Below are positions 3,410-27,633 of a stretch of DNA of 64,000 nucleotides, one piece after another (the stretch's first letter is position 1; every line of letters starts with the position of its first letter). Location of the stretch: positions 832,001 to 896,000 of the forward strand of contig CM000430.1 of assembly GCA_000165345.1 (NCBI GenBank), in the 5' to 3' direction. The translations under genes were made by a program, and so were the position numbers. The notes below the pieces were generated by a model. That model did not search any database and was not told where the DNA came from. It saw only the letters and a program-made list of their open reading frames with translations.

Positions 3410-4216
3410 TTAACTAGCCAAAGATAAAAACATTGCGGAGCTGTGAGCGAAGTTAATACGCTTAGCAAAAGCATGAGTACCCGGTACCAATAAAGACATG
3501 AAGTAGGAGCTTGACTCAAACTTGAATATTTGGGGGATAGAACTAACATTGAAAGCTAGCTCTCTGAGACCTTTAAAGTTAGAAATGACACATCCTGAAG
3601 ATACATTTTCAATGAAGAGGATCAGATTATATGCTATTAAATCGTTGAATGAAACTTTGTTACCCATCAAAAATTTGTGTTCTGTAGAAGCGAAGGTGTC
3701 ATTCAAAACCTTCAAAGTTTGATAAATATTCTCATTAGTAAGAAGTTTTGAACAAGTCAAAGTCTTTGAGGAATCTAAAATCTTGGTAGTTTTCTTAATG
3801 TAACTCCTAGCAATGGAAGAAAGCTGGATTGAAATTGTATGTAACAACAAATTCTTTGAAAATAGTTCTTTGTTATATGAAAGAATAATATAACTTAAAA
3901 CTGCTTCATCAGTACTGAGGTATTGAACATTCTTTGCAGTATCGCTGATCATTGGAATTGATGGTTGAAGGAATCCAGACTTGATAATTTCTTTGAAAAG
4001 CTTAGCCTGAGATTCTGAATCTTTCTTAAATCTAGTTTCAGTAAATGCAAGACCAGAGTAAACAAGAACAGTTCTAACCAAATGATTGCTATCTAGTTCC
4101 TTAGTTGAATAGAGTGTAATTGGAACAATACTTGCCTTGGCTTTTACTGACTCCACTGAAGTAGAGAAAAGTGCAAGAAAAGCAAAAACTGAAGCTAATA
4201 AACTTATGGACTTCAT
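3410..4216 (-). CDS. secreted protein, N-terminal signal peptide MKSISLLASVFAFLALFSTSVESVKA
   Basis: The ORF-track start at 4222 is a TTG. The first ATG is at 4216 and is followed by a classical signal peptide. I recognise no other domain. Confidence 0.6.
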   Translation of the reverse strand: MKSISLLASVFAFLALFSTSVESVKAKASIVPITLYSTKELDSNHLVRTVLVYSGLAFTETRFKKDSESQAKLFKEIIKSGFLQPSIPMISDTAKNVQYLSTDEAVLSYIILSYNKELFSKNLLLHTISIQLSSIARSYIKKTTKILDSSKTLTCSKLLTNENIYQTLKVLNDTFASTEHKFLMGNKVSFNDLIAYNLILFIENVSSGCVISNFKGLRELAFNVSSIPQIFKFESSSYFMSLLVPGTHAFAKRINFAHSSAMFLSLAS

Positions 4217-4656
4217 ATTCAACTAATTCTTGAATTGAAATTTTTTAAATGAGATAAATTGCAAGAGAATATTTCAAAAATTTCGGTAATAATCCACAGT
4301 TTTATTAGTTACTTCTTCGAGAGAAATAAGATTTCCCGCCTTATAATTTATGAATAGTGGTCTTTATCATTACGTATATTTTGTGAAAAAGATAACTTTG
4401 ATTAATTAGGGTATCTAATTGAACAAAAGACATTAGACTGAAGTATAATGATACTTAATTACTACTATATATTTTTGATGATGATCTACTTTCAAGTAAC
4501 TTTAACTTACTATCTCATGATAATAAATATAAATATGAATGGCGGGAAATGTTTGAAATTAAGTAAGCATGTATAAAAATAATATATAATATAATAAAGA
4601 AGATATTGAAATATTTCCTCGGAAGATCGTTTTACTGTGATTATATTGTTAAATTT

Positions 4657-8927: not shown

Positions 8928-9173
8928 TATAATCTAATTTAAGGCGCCATATACAAATAGCTTCTATAAAAGAAAATTACATGCATGGGGGACAATGCTA
9001 ATTAATTATTGGTGCCCGCCAAGTACCGAAAATTAATGGAAAAATCACTCAAAAAAAAATGTAGTGAAGAATAGAGGGTAATTTAACAATCAAGAAAACC
9101 AATATTATGTAATCGAGCTAAAACAACTGAGAGCTGAATATACTTTTACATACTAATTTATTAATGATTGAAG

Positions 9174-9626
9174 ATGATTCAAGTTGTTTGCATTAGTATC
9201 GTTGATAGAAGTAACCAACCTTTATTTTTTAGAACATTGGAAAATGAATCACTTGATTCACTTCATTTTGCAGTTTATTCTGCATTGGATATCATTGAAA
9301 GAAAGGCCAGCGGTGATGCAATGGAAGGATCTTTGGACCCATATTTGGGTTATTTAGGACCTGCAATTAGTTTAAGTTATGAATATGAAATTTATGGCTT
9401 CCTAAGTTTCTCTCACGTGAAAATTATTGTAGTACTACAAGATCATCCTGAAAATGAAATCGAGCTCCGAAATTTCTTCCACAATGTATATAAAGCTTAC
9501 GTGGATTCTATATGTAATCCTTTTTTATTAAGAACAATAGAAACACCTAAATTAATTGGAAAGATTGATAGGTTAATTTCGAGTGCTCGGGAAGTTAATA
9601 TTCATATAGACAAGGGTCAATCATGA
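9174..9626 (+). CDS. TRAPPC2: TRAPP complex subunit sedlin (TRAPPC2/Trs20-like)
   Basis: Matches the sedlin pattern: IVDRSNQPLFF near the N-terminus, FAVYSALDII, and NFFHNVYKAYVDSICNPF against human NFFTDVYDLYIKFSMNPF. The track start at 9168 is a TTG. The first ATG is at 9174. Confidence 0.75.
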   Translation: MIQVVCISIVDRSNQPLFFRTLENESLDSLHFAVYSALDIIERKASGDAMEGSLDPYLGYLGPAISLSYEYEIYGFLSFSHVKIIVVLQDHPENEIELRNFFHNVYKAYVDSICNPFLLRTIETPKLIGKIDRLISSAREVNIHIDKGQS

Positions 9627-10301
9627 ATAAAGTGAACATATTTTCTTATAGAAATGATAAAATTGAAGATTTATAAAAAAAATATACATTGTAGAAATAT
9701 ACACCTTTTTTTTCTTTCAAATGATCCTGCAGTTTTGTGGGATTTATTATAAGTTTTAGCTTGCTAATTTATAATTTTATAGATAGATAAAAATATATTT
9801 TGTTTATAATGAATCATTAAATGTTTCTATTAAAGCAAATTACTTTGAAGAGACAGTTGGCGCCCATGCAATCAAAATTATTAATATAATGCAAATGTAA
9901 AAAGTTTGGACTTAATATGTTTTCAGGAGCGGTAAAAAGATAAAATATTACAGAAAACAATTCCATAAACACTTTGGTGATAGAAAAGGTAGTGATTAGA
10001 CCTAAATTGAATTATATGCATTTAATTAACTATTCTTTGATCTAATTGCGGTATTTACTAGTTAACTTTTTTAATACAAGTAATATTTAACTCAATTTCG
10101 AGTCCCCACAAATTCGGCGCCAAAAAATCAAATATTAATATATTTATTTTAATGTTTTAGAAGGTAAAAGGCAACATTAGAAATAAAAAGGGAGAAGTAA
10201 AGGGTGAAAATTGCCATAATATATTTCAACCTTCTGTCCTTAAGTATAATTTTAGATAAGGAAGGTATTGTTGGGGTTTTGTAAATTAGGAAGGGGCAAA
10301 T

Positions 10302-11432
10302 ATGGAAATTTTAAATCAAGTTGATATGAGCGTAGTAACAACTACTGCATCAAATTCTGAGTTTGTCGATTATTCAGCTTCAAATAATGCAAAGACATCT
10401 AGAGGTGAAGATAACGATTTGAGTAATTATTTGGAATCAAATAAAGAAAATTTGACATTAGATGAAACAAATATTAATGATTCTGACAATTTGCTATTTG
10501 AAAAGGATTTTCTGAGTGATAATAACAGGGAGAGCTTTTCTGAATATAATGGAAGTGATACAGAAATGGAAGGTTGTGAAGAGTTAGTTATGATGGTTCC
10601 AGATTTAGATTCTACACTTAAGTTTAAACATGATACTGAAAGATTCTTTATGACGTTATCGATCGCAGAGGCCGAATTGGATCTAGCAAAATCAGCCTCT
10701 AGAACATCAAAACTTGCTATGGGAGATGATTTTGATATTAGTAGCCGAGGTGGAACAAATTGTTTAAAAGAAATTAGAAACTATGTAGAAGAGTTGTTGG
10801 ATACTGTCAACGATGTCAGGGACTCTAATTTTGGAATTCAACGTATTGTTGAGGAATGTAATGAGATTTTACAACAAAGTGTTTCTCAAAGTAATCTTTC
10901 TCAGATCGATACTATGGATATGAACACTATCACTGATCAGAATCTAGTTTCTATTGAAAGACTAAAACTTCTTTGTGAAGCAATTTCTGAAGAAAATTCA
11001 AGATTAAAAAAAGAAATTGATATCTTAAATAATGAAAATGAGTTTTTGATTCATAAAGTAGACCATGAAGAGGAGTCTAGCTTACAAGAAGAGAAAAGGC
11101 CTTATAATTATTTTAGGAATAATCCTATCATGAGATTATTCTTTTTTATATTTGTTTTAGCAATGTTTAGTCCTGCTAATATTTCAAATGGTTTCCAGAA
11201 AGCCCAGGTATTCGAACAGCAATCTGGTTTTTCTGAAATTGCTCCAGAATTCCCTGATAGAGACTACAAATTTTCAAAAATCAATACTTTGCAACTACTC
11301 GAGAAGTCTCTTAAAGGACTCAAATTTGAGGATATTTCCTCACAAGGTCATCCAGATACTATTTCTATATGTTCCATTCTGTCTGAGTTGGATGTTTTAG
11401 AAAAATGTTTTACAAGAATCAGACTTTCTTAG
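10302..11432 (+). CDS. hypothetical coiled-coil protein (376 aa) with C-proximal hydrophobic segment
   Basis: ATG ORF. Coiled-coil-like heptads (LKLLCEAISEENSRLKKEIDILNNENEFL) are followed by IMRLFFFIFVLAMFSPANI. The promoter carries two GGCGCC motifs (9859, 10116). Confidence 0.55.
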   Translation: MEILNQVDMSVVTTTASNSEFVDYSASNNAKTSRGEDNDLSNYLESNKENLTLDETNINDSDNLLFEKDFLSDNNRESFSEYNGSDTEMEGCEELVMMVPDLDSTLKFKHDTERFFMTLSIAEAELDLAKSASRTSKLAMGDDFDISSRGGTNCLKEIRNYVEELLDTVNDVRDSNFGIQRIVEECNEILQQSVSQSNLSQIDTMDMNTITDQNLVSIERLKLLCEAISEENSRLKKEIDILNNENEFLIHKVDHEEESSLQEEKRPYNYFRNNPIMRLFFFIFVLAMFSPANISNGFQKAQVFEQQSGFSEIAPEFPDRDYKFSKINTLQLLEKSLKGLKFEDISSQGHPDTISICSILSELDVLEKCFTRIRLS

Positions 11433-12158
11433 AACATGCAACATCATTATATAAATATATATACGTGCACAGTATATATTATATTTATTATTTCTATAAT
11501 AGGTTAGAAATTATCTTAAAAAAAAAAAAACGTTATATTTTTTCCCTTCCCACTTAATATATATATATATATTTCTTATTTTTTTCTCCTTCAGTCATGA
11601 ACAACATAATTGATATAATAATGAAAAAAGAAAAGTTACACGCATTTCATAAGTATTTTATTAAGAGAATCAGCTTAATAGTCAGCTGTGCGCGCCTAAT
11701 TATTCAATTACATGCAAATTAAAATGCAAATTTTTCTCCCATTATTTTTTTTTTTTCATGCAATGAATTTACTGATGTCTGTTTTCATTTTAAAAACAAC
11801 AAAATAATTATTTTATTTCCCGCTCATCTCGAATAATTTATTAGGCGGGCTATTTGCGAATTTTAATAGTAACAATAGAAGTAGGGCTCGAAGATGATTA
11901 TCGAGTCCAAATATAAATAATGAAATGATATTTAAATGGTTAGGTTTTTAGTAATGATATTAATAGAAATAATAAAATCTCTCCATCAAAAAATTGCAAA
12001 TTAGTGTTAAATTTATGTTTGATTTTTTCATACATTAAAAAAAAAGAAATAGTAAATTTTTATTATTTTAAAAATCGTTGAAGTTAAAAAAAAAAAAAAA
12101 ATTAGAAAGAAATTGTAAATAAATATTTATTTAAAGAAGATAATAGTAAGGAAGAAAA

Positions 12159-14078
12159 ATGGCTAATAGATTTCTTATTTTGAATATCATCTTATTGTTA
12201 ACCGGGGTATTATCACAAGATTCATTAAGGTAGTGTTTAAATTATTATAAAAACCATTTATGTATCATTTGATTACAAAATGGTTTAAAATTCTTTTTTT
12301 TTCTTTTTTAACTGGGGTTTATCTTTTAATATCTTATTTGAATTTAAATAAATTCTAGATCATCAAATGAATCTTTACAATTACTTGACGAGGCTATTAA
12401 CACAAATGATACATTCTTTGATACAAATAATGATACATCATTACATCAAAGTAAGTTTTCCTTAGTTTATTATTAATTAATTGAATAATTAACAAAAAAA
12501 ATTAAAGATTTCACCTTAGATAAAGTAAAAATTAAAAATAAAATAAATAGCGATAATGAAAATAAGAACAAAACCAGCATTAAAACCAAAATTGAAGAAG
12601 AATCTGATGAATCTTTGACAAATTTGGAGTATAATTCCGAAAATAATAATACCAATTTTATAATGCCTTTCCAAAATAATATTTTAAAACTAATTGATCA
12701 TCTTAGCATTAATATTGGAAAGATCAGTTTTGAAGGACTTAAGAATGTTATTAAAGGAAAATACGTTATTAATCCAATTATTAGCACAGAAAAAGAAACA
12801 ACTTTGGTAGATCAGAATACTGTGAGCGATGGTTTTGAAGGGGATTCATCAACTTCTTCTAATGGTACTGCTGAGCCAAAACCAGAATTATCTAAATATC
12901 CTGATGTTACTGTATTACCAACAGAAGTCTTCATTCCAGAAAATACCAAATCTTTTGAACCTGCTCATGCAAGAGGAGCTCTTGGTGTTATGCCATTGCC
13001 AATGCAACTACCACCACAACCACCAGCATCTCATTCTGAAGACAATTCACAAATTTCAACAATTATTATCAATGAATCAAACAACCATGGTGAACATATT
13101 CCCGAGACTGAAACAGCTTCAGAACAAGGTTTTGGTGGAAGGGATGATACATATGGACCAAATAATAAATATCATCATCATCATCATCATCATCATCCTT
13201 CTTATAATCATCATCATAAACATCATCACCAACACCGTCCACACCATCCACCATTTAATGGAGACAATTCCAGTTCATCATCGACATCAACTTCTTCTAC
13301 CTCTACTTCAACTTCAACTTCAACAACATCAACATCAACATCAACAACTACAACTACAACTACTACAACAACTACAACAACTACAACTACAACAAACGAA
13401 GAAGTGAATGCAGTTAAAAATATTGCTCAAAAGAGAAATTTAAGAAGATTAAAGAAAGTAGTTTTAGAAGATGAGGAAGATGAAGATGATGAATATCTAG
13501 ATGAAATTGAACAAGAAAGAGAAGACTCTAAAGAGGGTAATCAAGTAACTGAAGTTGGATTACAAATAACAATGCCTATAATAACTTTAATTGCTTCAGA
13601 AACTAAATATTGCGGAAATGGAGTTGAATATTTGAACGAATTATCTCTTAAATTTAGAGAAACAATTGGAAAATTATTTGATTTATCTTATGAAGAAGTA
13701 TTTATTGTTAAAATGACTTCTACAAATAAATCATTTGTAAATTGCAATGACAAGAATGCAGTACAAAAGGACAAATCTGGAGTTAAATTCACCTTTGTGT
13801 AAGTTTGTTTGATATATTTAATAACATTTCTAACATCAAATTTGTAGGATTGGAACAAAAATGGAAGGCTCACACATATTTAAAGTTTTGGAATTAGCAA
13901 TCAAGGATAAAGAATCTTTCCTTGTAAAAGAATTTGGAAAGGTAAGTTTTGTTCATAAAGAAGAATTTAAAGAAAATAATTCTTCTTATTTAAAATGATT
14001 AATTTTATTATTTTTACTAAATTATACTGAAAATTTCAATAGATTGGCTTCATTCAAATCTCTAAAAATATCGCATAA
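12159..14078 (+). CDS. secreted mucin-like glycoprotein with poly-His and poly-Thr/Ser tracts, 5 exons (12159..12229, 12359..12450, 12508..13798, 13848..13941, 14043..14078)
   Basis: Exon 1 encodes the signal peptide MANRFLILNIILLLTGVLSQ. All four introns have GTAAGT/GTAGTG donors and T-rich..AG acceptors, and the phases are consistent (2/1, 1/2, 2/1, 0/0). The large exon encodes HHHHHHHH..HHHKHHHQHRPHH, a (S/T)n block and about 20 consecutive Thr. Confidence 0.55.
13186..13405 (+). repeat. CAT (poly-His) then TCA/ACT/ACA (poly-Ser/Thr) trinucleotide repeats
   Basis: Visible in the sequence, inside the mucin-like exon 3. Confidence 0.85.
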
Positions 14079-14799
14079 TTTGGTTTCATCATACGCATTA
14101 ACATAACTAATATGATGACCCCTTCCCACAAGAAATTCCCGCCTAAACGAGATGTCAATAACTACATATTTTTTTTTCTAATTTTATCGAGAAGAAATTG
14201 ATTTTTTTAAAAAATTGTTTTCATTCTCAATAAATTGAAAGTTTTTTGACGTAAATTTGTGTCCAAATAACTCAATTATTTTAGAAATGGCTTTTTAAAT
14301 AAAATATTGTGGGTTAATGTTGATTTGTTTGTTTATGTTTTCTTTTTTAATTAATTACTGTATTCCAAATTCGTGATGCTACTATTACATGCATTTTTAA
14401 TAGGAATAGTTGTTAAAGAGTATTATTAAAGCCCGCCCCACATATAGAAACATGCATGTATTTAAAGCGCCAAATATGAAGGAATATTTAAAAAAAAAAA
14501 AATAAATGCGAGTGCATAAATATAGTAAAAATGGTAATTTGAACAATAAAATGAAATAAGAAGCAATATATATAAGTATTAGCCAAATATTTAATTGTAG
14601 ATCTTCAATTATTAAGAGTTGAATTAATTTAGTTATAATGGGAGTGTAAGGTAAAGAATAAGAGAAAAAAGAAAATAAACAAAAGTAAAATAAAATAATT
14701 ATATTAAAAATAAATTAAATAATAAAAAAAAAAATACTGAAATAGCATAATTTATAAAATTATATTAAATCTCAACATCCATAATTCTTATTGATCCTC

Positions 14800-16501: not shown

Positions 16502-17264
16502 TTTTCAAATCACTTATATTAACGTTAAATTCTTCACTTCTTGATTTAACCTTCTCTAAATCTTCTTCTATCACCCTGAAATCCACTTTTCTATTGATTT
16601 CTCCTTATTCCCTTTTAATTAGTATTTTTATTTTACACCAAATTTCACTTTTGCATATAAATTAATAATTATTGGATCTTCTTTAAACAATTTTAGCTAT
16701 TAACAAAAGCCCGCCTAATGGTAACTTAAATTGCATGTACTATTGGTAGCAACAATATAATAATAATTACATTAATATTAATATTAGCAAAAATTGATCA
16801 GTATCTCACTAGTACTTTGAAAAACTAAATTCTTAGTTAAGTTTATGAAACTTTAGAATTTATCACTGAATTAAAGTAAAAATTGTTTTCATTGCCACTT
16901 TTTTTCTGAATATATATTTGTTTATTAATAATAAAAAAAAATTACAGCCTATTTAACATGCATGCAGATTTGAATTAAAAATAAAATAGTTGCCAAATTT
17001 TAATAATACTAAAATTCGAGATTGAAATGCTGTATATTTTAATTTGTGTTACATAAATATATATATTTCAATGATAAATATATATAATTTCATCTTGATT
17101 TTAAGCTAGCCAAATTTCAATGCAATTTTCAGGGTAATAATGCATTATCTCTGTATGCTAGATAACAAAGTTAAATCCCTAATGGAATTAATTGTCTAAT
17201 TAATACTAAATAGTAATAGTTGTATTATTATCAAAGACAAAATTCAGTTTTTATTAAAGCAAAT

Positions 17265-19148
17265 ATGAGTAAAAGTTCTTCTAAAGAACTTAAAGTAGTA
17301 CACTCCAAAGAAAAGCTAAATAATAAGTTATTTCATGAGTTTAATTCCCATACAATTTCTACAAATGATTCGAGAGATAATGAAGATTCTTTATTAGCAA
17401 TTTCATCTATTAATGCAATACCTACATCACTTAAAATATCAAAAAAACATACAACTTCAAAAATAAATAATCAAATTGTCAATAACTCTTATAACTCAGT
17501 TATAGGAGAAGAAAATGAAGAAAAAGAATACTCTTATAATAAATTTAAGAGTCAAGAGTTAGATCATCAAGAAATCAAAAAGAGTAATACAGGACAAAAA
17601 AAAAAGAAATGGCATCAAAAATTCAAACTTTCTTTTTTACTTTTTAGTTATAACAAGAATATTGAAAAAAATAAAGTTAAGTCTATTAAAGACAATTCAA
17701 ATATAAATAAAATGGAACAAAACAAAGAAAATATGAATAGTTATAACCATAAGCATAGTTGGACTTTACCACTTAAAGATTTTACTTCAAGTACGAAAAA
17801 AGAAAATTTTGAATCAAATAACTCCAATTTGAGTATTGGAAACAATCATATTGCTTTTTCTACTCAAACTTGTTCATCTTCATTACCTAAATCTTTGAAC
17901 TCACATATATCTTACATTCCCACAACCAAATCTCCTACATCATTTACAAATACTTCTTATATATCATCTTCACCATCGTCATCATCATCTTCATCCTCCT
18001 CATCATCATCTTCTTCTTCCTCAGCTTCATTTTTAACACCATCATCATCAACTCAGTTATTTTCACCAAAAATGTCTTTAATATCGTCTTATATTACTCA
18101 AGAAGAAGAAGTATTAGAAGCAGGAATTTACGATAAAGATAATTTAGGTAGGAATGGTTTTAGTTTAAGAAGTATTACTGGCGATAGGGAAAGTATTATA
18201 TATGATGAAGACTATGAGTCTTATTTAGAAAGTACAATTAAAGAACCATTTTTGGAACCACAAAGAAGAGAATATATTGGAAGGAAGACTCTAGTTTTGG
18301 ATCTAGATGAAACTTTAATTCATAGCTCATTCCAGCCAATCAGAAATGCTTCTTTTACTATCAATATTGAGATTGATGGAGATTATTACGATGTATACGT
18401 ATTAAAAAGGCCAGGAGTTGATAAATTTTTGAATATTGTTTCAGCAATATTTGAGGTTGTTATTTTTACTGCTAGCTTATCAAAATATGCTAATCCACTT
18501 TTGGATAGACTTGACCCAATGAATAAATGCCCTTATCGTCTATTTAGAGAGAATTGTACTGTAGAGGGAAATTCCTATATCAAAGATTTATCTAAGCTTG
18601 GAAGACCTCTTAAAGATATAATAATTATTGATAACTCACCTATATCATATATTCTTCAACCTGAAAATGCTATCCCAATTTCATCATGGTAAGATTTTAA
18701 TTTTCACCTTAATTAATTAACTTAAGCTTGAAATCTTTAGGTTTAGTGACGAAAGTGACACTCAGTTGATTGACCTTATTCCTCTTCTTGAAGTAAGTTT
18801 ACTATCGATTCTAATAATAATATGAAAAAAAGTGTGAGAGTAGTATATATAATTTGTAACTCATTAAAACACTATTCAATAGATACAGCAATATATATAT
18901 GTTGTATTTATAGTCTTTTGCATTATATTAGAATCATCATTAATATATATATAATTCTAAATTACTCATTAAAGATGATTGCTCAAGGACATCCAACCTT
19001 ATCTACTTCATTTGGAAGTATAAGTGATTATTATATATCTGATAATAGTAATAATAAAGAGCAGACAGAACTTATTGAATTTAGCAGTTCTTCTACAATC
19101 TATGTTGAATCATCATTTTATCATCCAAAAGAACTCTACTATTATTGA
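17265..19148 (+). CDS. NIF/FCP1-homology CTD small phosphatase-like protein (HAD family), 3 exons (17265..18688, 18741..18792, 18975..19148)
   Basis: Carries the catalytic [10 protein letters not shown] (DxDxT) motif and the downstream NIF-domain blocks ([37 protein letters not shown]). Exon 2 encodes the conserved tail [18 protein letters not shown]. The first ATG is at 17265 (track start 17220 is TTG). The N-terminus is Ser-rich. The third exon is a frame-compatible proposal only. Confidence 0.65.

Positions 19149-24063: not shown

Positions 24064-27633
<3,570 letters not shown>

Follow-up and report, generated by a model that had tools for sequence, protein, structure and literature searches.

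The mucin-like glycoproteins described in Cryptosporidium, among them gp60 (gp40/15, the product of cgd6_1080), gp900, Muc1-7 and Muc25, combine a signal peptide with a homopolymeric tract of serine and threonine that varies between isolates, and they are released from the invasive stages of the parasite. A published list for C. parvum comprises 29 mucin genes. The gp60 precursor is cut at a furin-type RSRR site, and its gp15 part carries a glycosylphosphatidylinositol (GPI) anchor. Dense clusters of histidine in secreted glycoproteins are found in vertebrate histidine-rich glycoprotein and in Plasmodium HRP2, proteins whose binding of Zn2+, heme or heparan sulfate depends on pH. Here we analyze the C. 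parvum gene cgd2_3780, which lies within a 64,000-nucleotide stretch of contig CM000430.1 (assembly GCA_000165345.1, positions 832,001 to 896,000 of the forward strand), referred to below as the window and numbered from its first letter. We conclude that cgd2_3780 is a genuine gene of five exons, and we think it probable that its product is a soluble, secreted and modular glycoprotein that works in the manner set out below.

The predicted product recalls both groups of proteins. With the mucin-like glycoproteins it shares an apparent signal peptide, a homopolymeric and variable Ser/Thr tract and release from invasive stages; with gp60 in particular it shares its presence in the same vesicle preparations and, possibly, a precursor that is cleaved to give an N-terminal mucin part and a small C-terminal one. 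Unlike gp60, it has no GPI signal, its putative cleavage site has a different sequence (KRNLRRL), and it possesses four introns, a histidine cluster and a folded C-terminal domain without a detectable paralog. To the histidine-rich proteins it bears no sequence relation, and its cluster is 25 residues in length rather than a long repeat array. Judged by these sequence features, the protein can be classed, under the working definition in use, among the mucin-like secreted glycoproteins of Cryptosporidium. If its SEA-like tail, its histidine cluster and its proposed cleavage are all real, cgd2_3780 would join a small set of secreted glycoproteins that are candidates for attachment, antigenicity and typing.

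The five-exon model of cgd2_3780

Joining the five exons listed in Table 1 produces a 1584-nucleotide open reading frame (ORF) for a protein of 527 residues, with a single stop codon at its end. The model is identical to CryptoDB gene cgd2_3780 (UniProt Q5CTA6; CM000430:844159-846078), with which it agrees in span (1920 nucleotides), in the length of the product and in its mass (58.9 kDa in the database and 58.93 kDa as computed from the model). The gene is the already annotated cgd2_3780 of C. parvum Iowa II and is not new. Public records describe it as uncharacterised and without domains or function, and in the literature searched its only main-text mention is as an uncharacterised Cryptosporidium-specific protein. 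A sequence-only reading of the window had proposed five exons with consistent phases, and the public annotation, the conserved positions of the introns and the peptides from exons 4 and 5 (see below) all bear out that proposal; the exon coordinates that it named and the 71-nucleotide length of exon 1 are present in the sequence as stated. Most C. parvum genes are without introns; the correct reconstruction of a four-intron gene from raw sequence in such a genome serves as a check on the method.

The start codon at position 12159 lies in the context AAAATGG, with in-frame stops just upstream, in a window that is AT-rich (approximately 27% GC). The donors are, in the order of the introns, GTAGTG, GTAAGT, GTAAGT and GTAAGT; all four acceptors end in AG, three of them in TAG. 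We also tried ending exon 3 at 13797, but this broke the frame, which is open only when the exon ends at 13798. At 27% GC the probability that a frame of 527 codons is open by chance is about 1e-20, and for the 31 codons of exon 4 the corresponding probability is about 7%. The case for the tiny exons therefore rests on other evidence, namely the lengths of the exons, the bias of substitutions toward third positions, and peptides.

Orthologs were found in C. tyzzeri (CTYZ_00002630, 96% identical) and in C. canis (KAJ1610828.1 and KAJ1615381.1, 53% identical), each with the same four introns. C. bovis (assembly VHIT) has a more distantly related ortholog, likewise with four introns, in which exons 4 and 5 again measure 94 and 36 nucleotides. 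A further ortholog lies on a contig from another species, designated L003; the product of its exon 3 and the C. parvum protein are 46% identical. DNA alignments and comparison of the loci placed the four introns at the same positions, with GT and AG kept at their ends, in C. tyzzeri, C. canis, L003 and C. bovis. When the window was aligned with C. tyzzeri, C. canis and L003, exons 1, 4 and 5 contained no indels and exon 2 contained a single 3-nucleotide gap (in L003), and the indels that distinguish exon 3 from that of C. tyzzeri (15, 3 and 33 nucleotides) were all multiples of three and all located in the His and Ser/Thr repeats. The introns, on the other hand, differed between species in both length and sequence, with indels that were not multiples of three. 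Splicing the C. tyzzeri DNA at the homologous sites reproduced its annotated protein, TRY52792.1, exactly. The ratio of nonsynonymous to synonymous substitution rates (dN/dS) with respect to C. tyzzeri was 0.27, and substitutions in exons 4 and 5 were concentrated at third codon positions (for example, 8, 3 and 21 at the first, second and third positions, respectively, with respect to C. canis).

Protein-level evidence for the two small exons comes from a published mass-spectrometric proteome of the vesicles that are released at excystation, which contains two peptides of the protein, VLELAIK from exon 4 and IGFIQISK from exon 5. The second of these starts exactly where exon 4 meets exon 5, immediately behind a lysine residue, and shows that the spliced frame of exon 5 is translated. 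Introns are absent from most C. parvum genes, and ORF scanning of the locus recovers only 12615-13802, as would be expected if the five-exon model were an artefact and the true product were the lone ORF of exon 3 or a pseudogene. Such an artefact would, however, have to reproduce intron positions and exact small-exon lengths that are kept in five species, a dN/dS of 0.27, peptides from exons 4 and 5, and identity with a curated annotation. We assign it a vanishingly small probability and regard it as excluded by these results; the five-exon gene model is correct. The minus strand of the locus holds ORFs of only 60-61 residues. That exons of 94 and 36 nucleotides would escape ORF scanning had been anticipated from the sequence, and public gene calls of the prokaryote style did indeed miss them, consisting of exon 3 alone or of exon 4 read into its intron (P0003, P0005 and P0006).

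How widely is the gene distributed? Word-indexed homolog searches, carried out with the full protein and with its repeats cut out, returned only three Cryptosporidium proteins. An exhaustive HMMER search with a C-terminal profile against 1.84 billion representative proteins added C. bovis, the other C. canis record and a fragment of exon 4, along with a spurious repeat protein (P0007), and it revealed no homolog outside Cryptosporidium and no paralog. A search with a five-species C-terminal profile added one Cryptosporidium-like contig (L006), from a GC-richer relative. As far as these searches reach, the gene is restricted to the genus Cryptosporidium.

The two C. canis records differ at the exon 2/3 junction, where KAJ1610828.1 (P0002) has eight extra residues (RLISENNV) through use of an upstream AG acceptor and KAJ1615381.1 (P0009) uses the acceptor that is homologous to that of C. 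parvum. This is probably a difference in annotation rather than in biology.

Predicted secretion, repeat tracts and possible processing

Hydropathy is highest at residues 1-23, the sole strongly hydrophobic segment of the protein. The N-terminus consists of one positive residue, a 14-residue hydrophobic core and then V-L-S|Q, a layout that is conserved in all orthologs and for which the (-3,-1) rule favours cleavage after Ser19. It looks like a signal peptide, in keeping with the role originally proposed for exon 1. A surface location, which had been proposed as an alternative to secretion, is unsupported: hydropathy analysis detected neither a transmembrane segment nor a hydrophobic C-terminus of the GPI type, the C-terminus (...GKIGFIQISKNIA) not being hydrophobic. 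Ten N-x-S/T sequons are present in the 527-residue protein. For structure and profile work we used the C. tyzzeri ortholog, whose C-terminal domain shows 99% identity to that of the C. parvum protein. In the AlphaFold2 model of this full-length ortholog the predicted local distance difference test (pLDDT) score was below 50 for residues 1-391, and the N-terminal half, modelled from a shallow alignment, is tentatively predicted to be disordered. Its most conserved block, 38 residues in length, is described in Table 1.

In C. bovis and L006, intron 4 reads through in frame into a Cys-rich region of about 175 residues with a hydrophobic tail, as if retention of the intron could generate a membrane-anchored isoform. 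In C. parvum, however, the read-through stops after 22 codons, a homolog of the Cys-rich region is absent from the 64-kb window and from the C. tyzzeri locus, and IGFIQISK shows that it is the spliced frame of exon 5 that is translated. A membrane-anchored isoform is a most improbable reading of this gene and for C. parvum is excluded. The Cys-rich form of the C. bovis type, which is absent from C. parvum, may represent an alternative or ancestral form that is membrane-anchored.

We note some further features of these relatives. Inside the intron 4 extension the 36 nucleotides of exon 5 are read in another frame (C. bovis, contig L004, 11866-12402; L006, 1056-1577). L006 is without intron 3 and keeps the Cys-rich stretch; at about 606-640 of this contig, close to six consecutive A, the reading frame of the ortholog changes, through a fault in the assembly or a genuine frameshift. 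A paralogous counterpart of the Cys-rich extension forms the C-terminus of the large gene that lies immediately upstream (contig L002, 8616-9020, in C. canis; L003, 765-1217; and L004, 7982-8482, in C. bovis), with tblastn E values of 5e-11 to 1e-19.

The body of the protein is marked by two low-complexity tracts, a His cluster and a tract composed of Ser and Thr only (Table 1), and Thr and Ser are the two most frequent residues of the protein. The sequence-only reading was right about the run of eight histidines but had placed it directly before the Ser/Thr tract, from which the His block is in fact separated by seven residues (PPFNGDN). Its count of about 20 consecutive threonines must be lowered to 17 (T17, residues 334-350, nucleotides 13344-13394). 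Tandem Repeats Finder identified ATC/CAT and ACT/ACA codon repeats beneath the tracts. In the ORFs of all six frames of the window, no His run other than H8 reaches six residues, and T17 is the longest Thr run; runs of Asn, Ser and Thr are otherwise common. Other long runs are S16 in the NIF-phosphatase ORF at 17220-18692 (at about 17976, plus strand) and N14 and N16 (at about 22547 and about 62582, respectively, both plus strand).

A His-rich block is found at the same place in every ortholog, that is, in C. tyzzeri, in two C. canis isolates, in L003 and in C. bovis. In L003 the block is again H8, and in C. bovis it takes the form HHLHHPHHPHH together with further His clusters. The Ser/Thr tract, meanwhile, is 12 residues shorter in C. 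tyzzeri and is made of STTDSQA/TTPAP repeats in C. canis, two isolates of which have proteins of 592 and 672 residues (approximately 80 residues apart). The expectation that the repeats would vary in length thus holds between C. parvum and C. tyzzeri and between isolates of C. canis, but not yet within C. parvum: an exact look-up of the exon 3 ORF of the window in the protein collection gave no match and hence no isolate variants. The region containing the His and Thr repeats (13171-13395) is a plausible length-polymorphic marker.

Simple codon repeats whose length differs from C. parvum to C. tyzzeri and from one C. canis isolate to another, in a window in which amino-acid runs are common, could have arisen by neutral replication slippage, with conserved function confined to the N-terminal block, the basic motif and the C-terminal domain; the absence of a long Ser/Thr tract from C. 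bovis would accord with such an origin. Slippage does less well with the His block, which stays at the same position in five species despite turnover of the sequence (an observation that is hard to explain without selection), which recurs as H8 in L003 even though the exon 3 product there is 46% identical, and which contains the only His run of at least six residues in the window. As an account of both runs, slippage strikes us as possible but on balance unlikely; it fits the Thr tract better than the His block. Since C. bovis is without a long tract, whatever function is conserved does not depend on the mucin stalk, and the Ser/Thr stalk is, to judge from these alignments, lineage-specific and variable in length. 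Our hypothesis for the His cluster is that it is the best candidate for a pH- or metal-responsive binding patch. Metal binding, O-glycosylation and a part in host attachment, all put forward in the sequence-only reading, are likewise hypothetical properties of the protein.

Downstream of the Ser/Thr tract is a basic motif, KRNLRRL, in which the K, the R and both L residues are kept in five species as KR[NS]L[RK]xL. In the vesicle proteome both peptides of cgd2_3780 came from gel slice 8 only (15-23 kDa). The proteins of this slice have masses of 15.5-22.9 kDa, except for actin and a 14-3-3 protein that were found across many slices, and a 22.9-kDa proteasome subunit was detected in slice 8 alone. 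A fragment starting after KR would have a mass of 18.7 kDa, and the unglycosylated mature protein one of 56.8 kDa. From the confinement of the peptides to the 15-23 kDa slice, together with the conservation of the motif, we suggest that the precursor may be cleaved into an N-terminal mucin part and a C-terminal part of about 18 kDa.

The peptides also establish that the protein, as represented by its C-terminal part, is present in material released by C. parvum at excystation. Detection at the protein level solely in the medium after oocysts have excysted is what one would see if the protein were not a host-attachment factor but a glycoprotein of the oocyst interior or a sporozoite tether. Such a protein would be produced for the oocyst, would occupy the residual matrix or the space between sporozoites and inner wall, and would escape on opening of the oocyst. 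Mucin-like tethers have been described in the literature, and the protein has no anchor of its own. With only two cysteines, however, it does not have the Cys-rich repeats of oocyst wall proteins, and the literature searched reports no stage-specific expression or localisation for cgd2_3780. We consider an oocyst role unlikely and favour a soluble glycoprotein that is stored and released, as developed below.

The C-terminal domain and a working model

The only part of the C. tyzzeri ortholog that AlphaFold2 modelled with confidence was the last approximately 115 residues (about residues 392-507). This domain contains the only two cysteines of the protein. Neither it nor the conserved basic motif had featured in the sequence-only reading. 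It follows the Ser/Thr tract, and the protein ends 11 residues after the last helix without a hydrophobic segment. The arrangement recalls the layout of animal SEA mucins and receptors (MUC16, MUC1, TMPRSS6 and GPR126), but identity to these is 5-9% and no transmembrane segment follows the domain in C. parvum. The resemblance to SEA domains, which form a beta-alpha-beta-beta-alpha-beta sandwich, is confined to the predicted fold and may reflect convergence on a common ferredoxin-like fold. In front of strand 3 the sequence reads KSG-VKFTF in C. parvum and C. tyzzeri, HTG-VKFTF in C. canis, KMD-VKFTF in L003 and KSG-VRFTF in C. bovis. Pfam matches of the full protein to New_glue and NAM-associated were rejected as sub-threshold and of low complexity.

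In the model that we favour, the signal peptide would direct the protein into the secretory pathway, where, having no membrane anchor, it would be stored in a secretory organelle and released. Parasite GalNAc-transferases would O-glycosylate the 42-residue tract, which would thereby become a rigid spacer separating an N-terminal half that is largely unstructured and contains the 38-residue block and the His cluster from a SEA-like alpha/beta domain held by the conserved Cys pair. The precursor would then be cut at or near KR-N-L-R-R-L to yield an N-terminal, His-rich mucin part and the C-terminal part of about 18 kDa, much as gp60 gives rise to gp40 and gp15. The His cluster, with side chains that titrate near pH 6, would serve as a pH- or metal-dependent binding patch, and the C-terminal domain would dock to a partner protein; the target might be the host surface, material of the parasite or the interior of the oocyst.

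Several observations count against this model or temper it. Support for the splice junctions comes from comparison, from the annotation and from two peptides, of which one has a modest ion score of 26. The evidence for processing comes from two spectra in one experiment in which actin was smeared over most slices, and although unglycosylated N-terminal tryptic peptides exist, their absence at such depth proves little. Vesicle pellets also hold many cytosolic proteins, so that presence in them is weak evidence for regulated secretion. The literature searched contains no glycopeptide or lectin result for cgd2_3780, and C. bovis is nearly without a Ser/Thr tract. As for the domain, the fold models rest on alignments of three to five sequences. 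Foldseek yielded no significant match in the PDB, returning generic ferredoxin-like folds with E values of 0.02 or worse; none of the five orthologs matched SEA (PF01390) in Pfam at E values up to 10; and a sequence profile search of the PDB recovered no SEA chain at E values up to 10, its matches being noise from the acidic stretch. Nor is the autoproteolysis motif G|SVVV (G|S(V/I)VV), which the self-cleaving subset of SEA domains carries between strands 2 and 3, present: G-V-K-F-T-F stands in its place, with no Ser, Thr or Cys nucleophile after the Gly. We refer to the domain as SEA-like in its predicted fold and do not assign it to the SEA family.

A bolder proposal would make cgd2_3780 the first apicomplexan protein that resembles the SEA-type mucins of animals, with a His-rich, O-glycosylated stalk joined to a SEA-like module that does not cleave itself. 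The precursor would be cut at KR-x-L-[RK]-x-L into parts that stay associated, the histidines would provide a pH or zinc switch for the passage from stomach to intestine, and the membrane form of C. bovis would have been lost in the C. parvum lineage. We regard this combination as speculative and quite improbable.

Table 1. Positions of the exons, introns and protein features of cgd2_3780 in the window (aa, residues of the 527-residue protein; nt, nucleotides)
Feature	Position	Strand	Description
Exon 1	12159..12229	+	71 nt; start codon and predicted signal peptide MANRFLILNIILLLTGVLS; ends in phase 2; alignment with three other species free of gaps
Intron 1	12230..12358	+	129 nt, GTAGTG...TAG; immediate stop if retained; GT/AG and position conserved in C. 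tyzzeri, C. canis, L003 and C. bovis
Exon 2	12359..12450	+	92 nt; Asn-rich, three N-x-S/T sequons
Intron 2	12451..12507	+	57 nt, GTAAGT...AAG; stops if retained; position conserved; homologous acceptor used in C. canis KAJ1615381.1
Exon 3	12508..13798	+	1291 nt; main body of the protein
Most conserved N-terminal block	12663..12776	+	aa 107-144, MPFQNNILKLIDHLSINIGKISFEGLKNVIKGKYVINP, 38 residues; nearly invariant in four species; only short, low-confidence helices predicted
His cluster	13173..13247	+	aa 277-301, H8 (aa 277-284) then HHHKHHHQHRPHH; 17 His in 25 residues; mostly CAT repeats
Ser/Thr ("mucin") tract	13269..13394	+	aa 309-350, 42 residues, S and T only; ends in T17
Basic motif KRNLRRL	13431..13451	+	aa 363-369; candidate proteolytic processing site
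Acidic stretch	13467..13526	+	aa 375-394, EDEEDEDDEYLDEIEQERED; acidic in orthologs too
C-terminal folded domain, first part	13554..13798	+	aa 404-485; invariant Cys423 and Cys467
Intron 3	13799..13847	+	49 nt, GTAAGT...TAG; inside strand 3 of the C-terminal domain; stop one codon later if retained; position conserved in five species
Exon 4	13848..13941	+	94 nt; second helix of the C-terminal domain; 94 nt and zero indels in five species
Intron 4	13942..14042	+	101 nt, GTAAGT...TAG; C. parvum read-through stops after 22 codons (EFGKVSFVHKEEFKENNSSYLK, then stop); position conserved
Exon 5	14043..14078	+	36 nt including the stop codon; last strand, IGFIQISKNIA, then stop; exactly 36 nt in five species

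Genomic surroundings

Three landmarks in the window lie where they would be expected. The ORF at 3410-4222 on the minus strand fits the 268-residue GST3 gene cgd2_3730, whose C. tyzzeri counterpart has a GST_C_3 domain; the nested primers of a published C. parvum typing minisatellite, cgd2_3850 (CTGCTC repeat), match exactly at 24372-24582; and a 247-residue ORF fits cgd2_3950. All three fit the placement of the window at bases 832001-896000 of chromosome 2 of C. parvum Iowa II. The cgd2_3850 minisatellite is located inside an ORF of 1189 residues (24064-27633, plus strand), in which the repeat appears in one frame as a run of 37 Leu residues at about 24452, and the positional counterpart of this ORF in L003 carries a formin FH2 domain. 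No RNA families and no tRNAs were found in the 64-kb window.

Synteny is broken directly upstream of cgd2_3780, as seen when the region from about 9000 to 12158 of the window was compared with the flanks on L002, L003 and L004. In C. parvum and C. tyzzeri the gene is preceded by GST3, a sedlin-like gene and a gene for a 376-residue protein. In C. canis and C. bovis it is preceded by genes for a RabGAP, UFD1 and the large Cys-rich protein; the L003 contig starts there and shows only the Cys-rich gene. Downstream, the order of EF-hand protein, NIF phosphatase and formin is common to the loci compared.

Finally, we note short motifs on either side of the gene. A GC-rich motif, TTCCCGCCTAAACG, is found at 14136-14149, 60 nucleotides past the stop codon, and is kept in all four aligned species in a convergent intergenic region that has otherwise diverged. 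An E2F-like sequence, TTTCCCGC, and a GGCGGG site (11816-11823 and 11844-11849, respectively) are located approximately 310-340 nucleotides upstream of the start codon.

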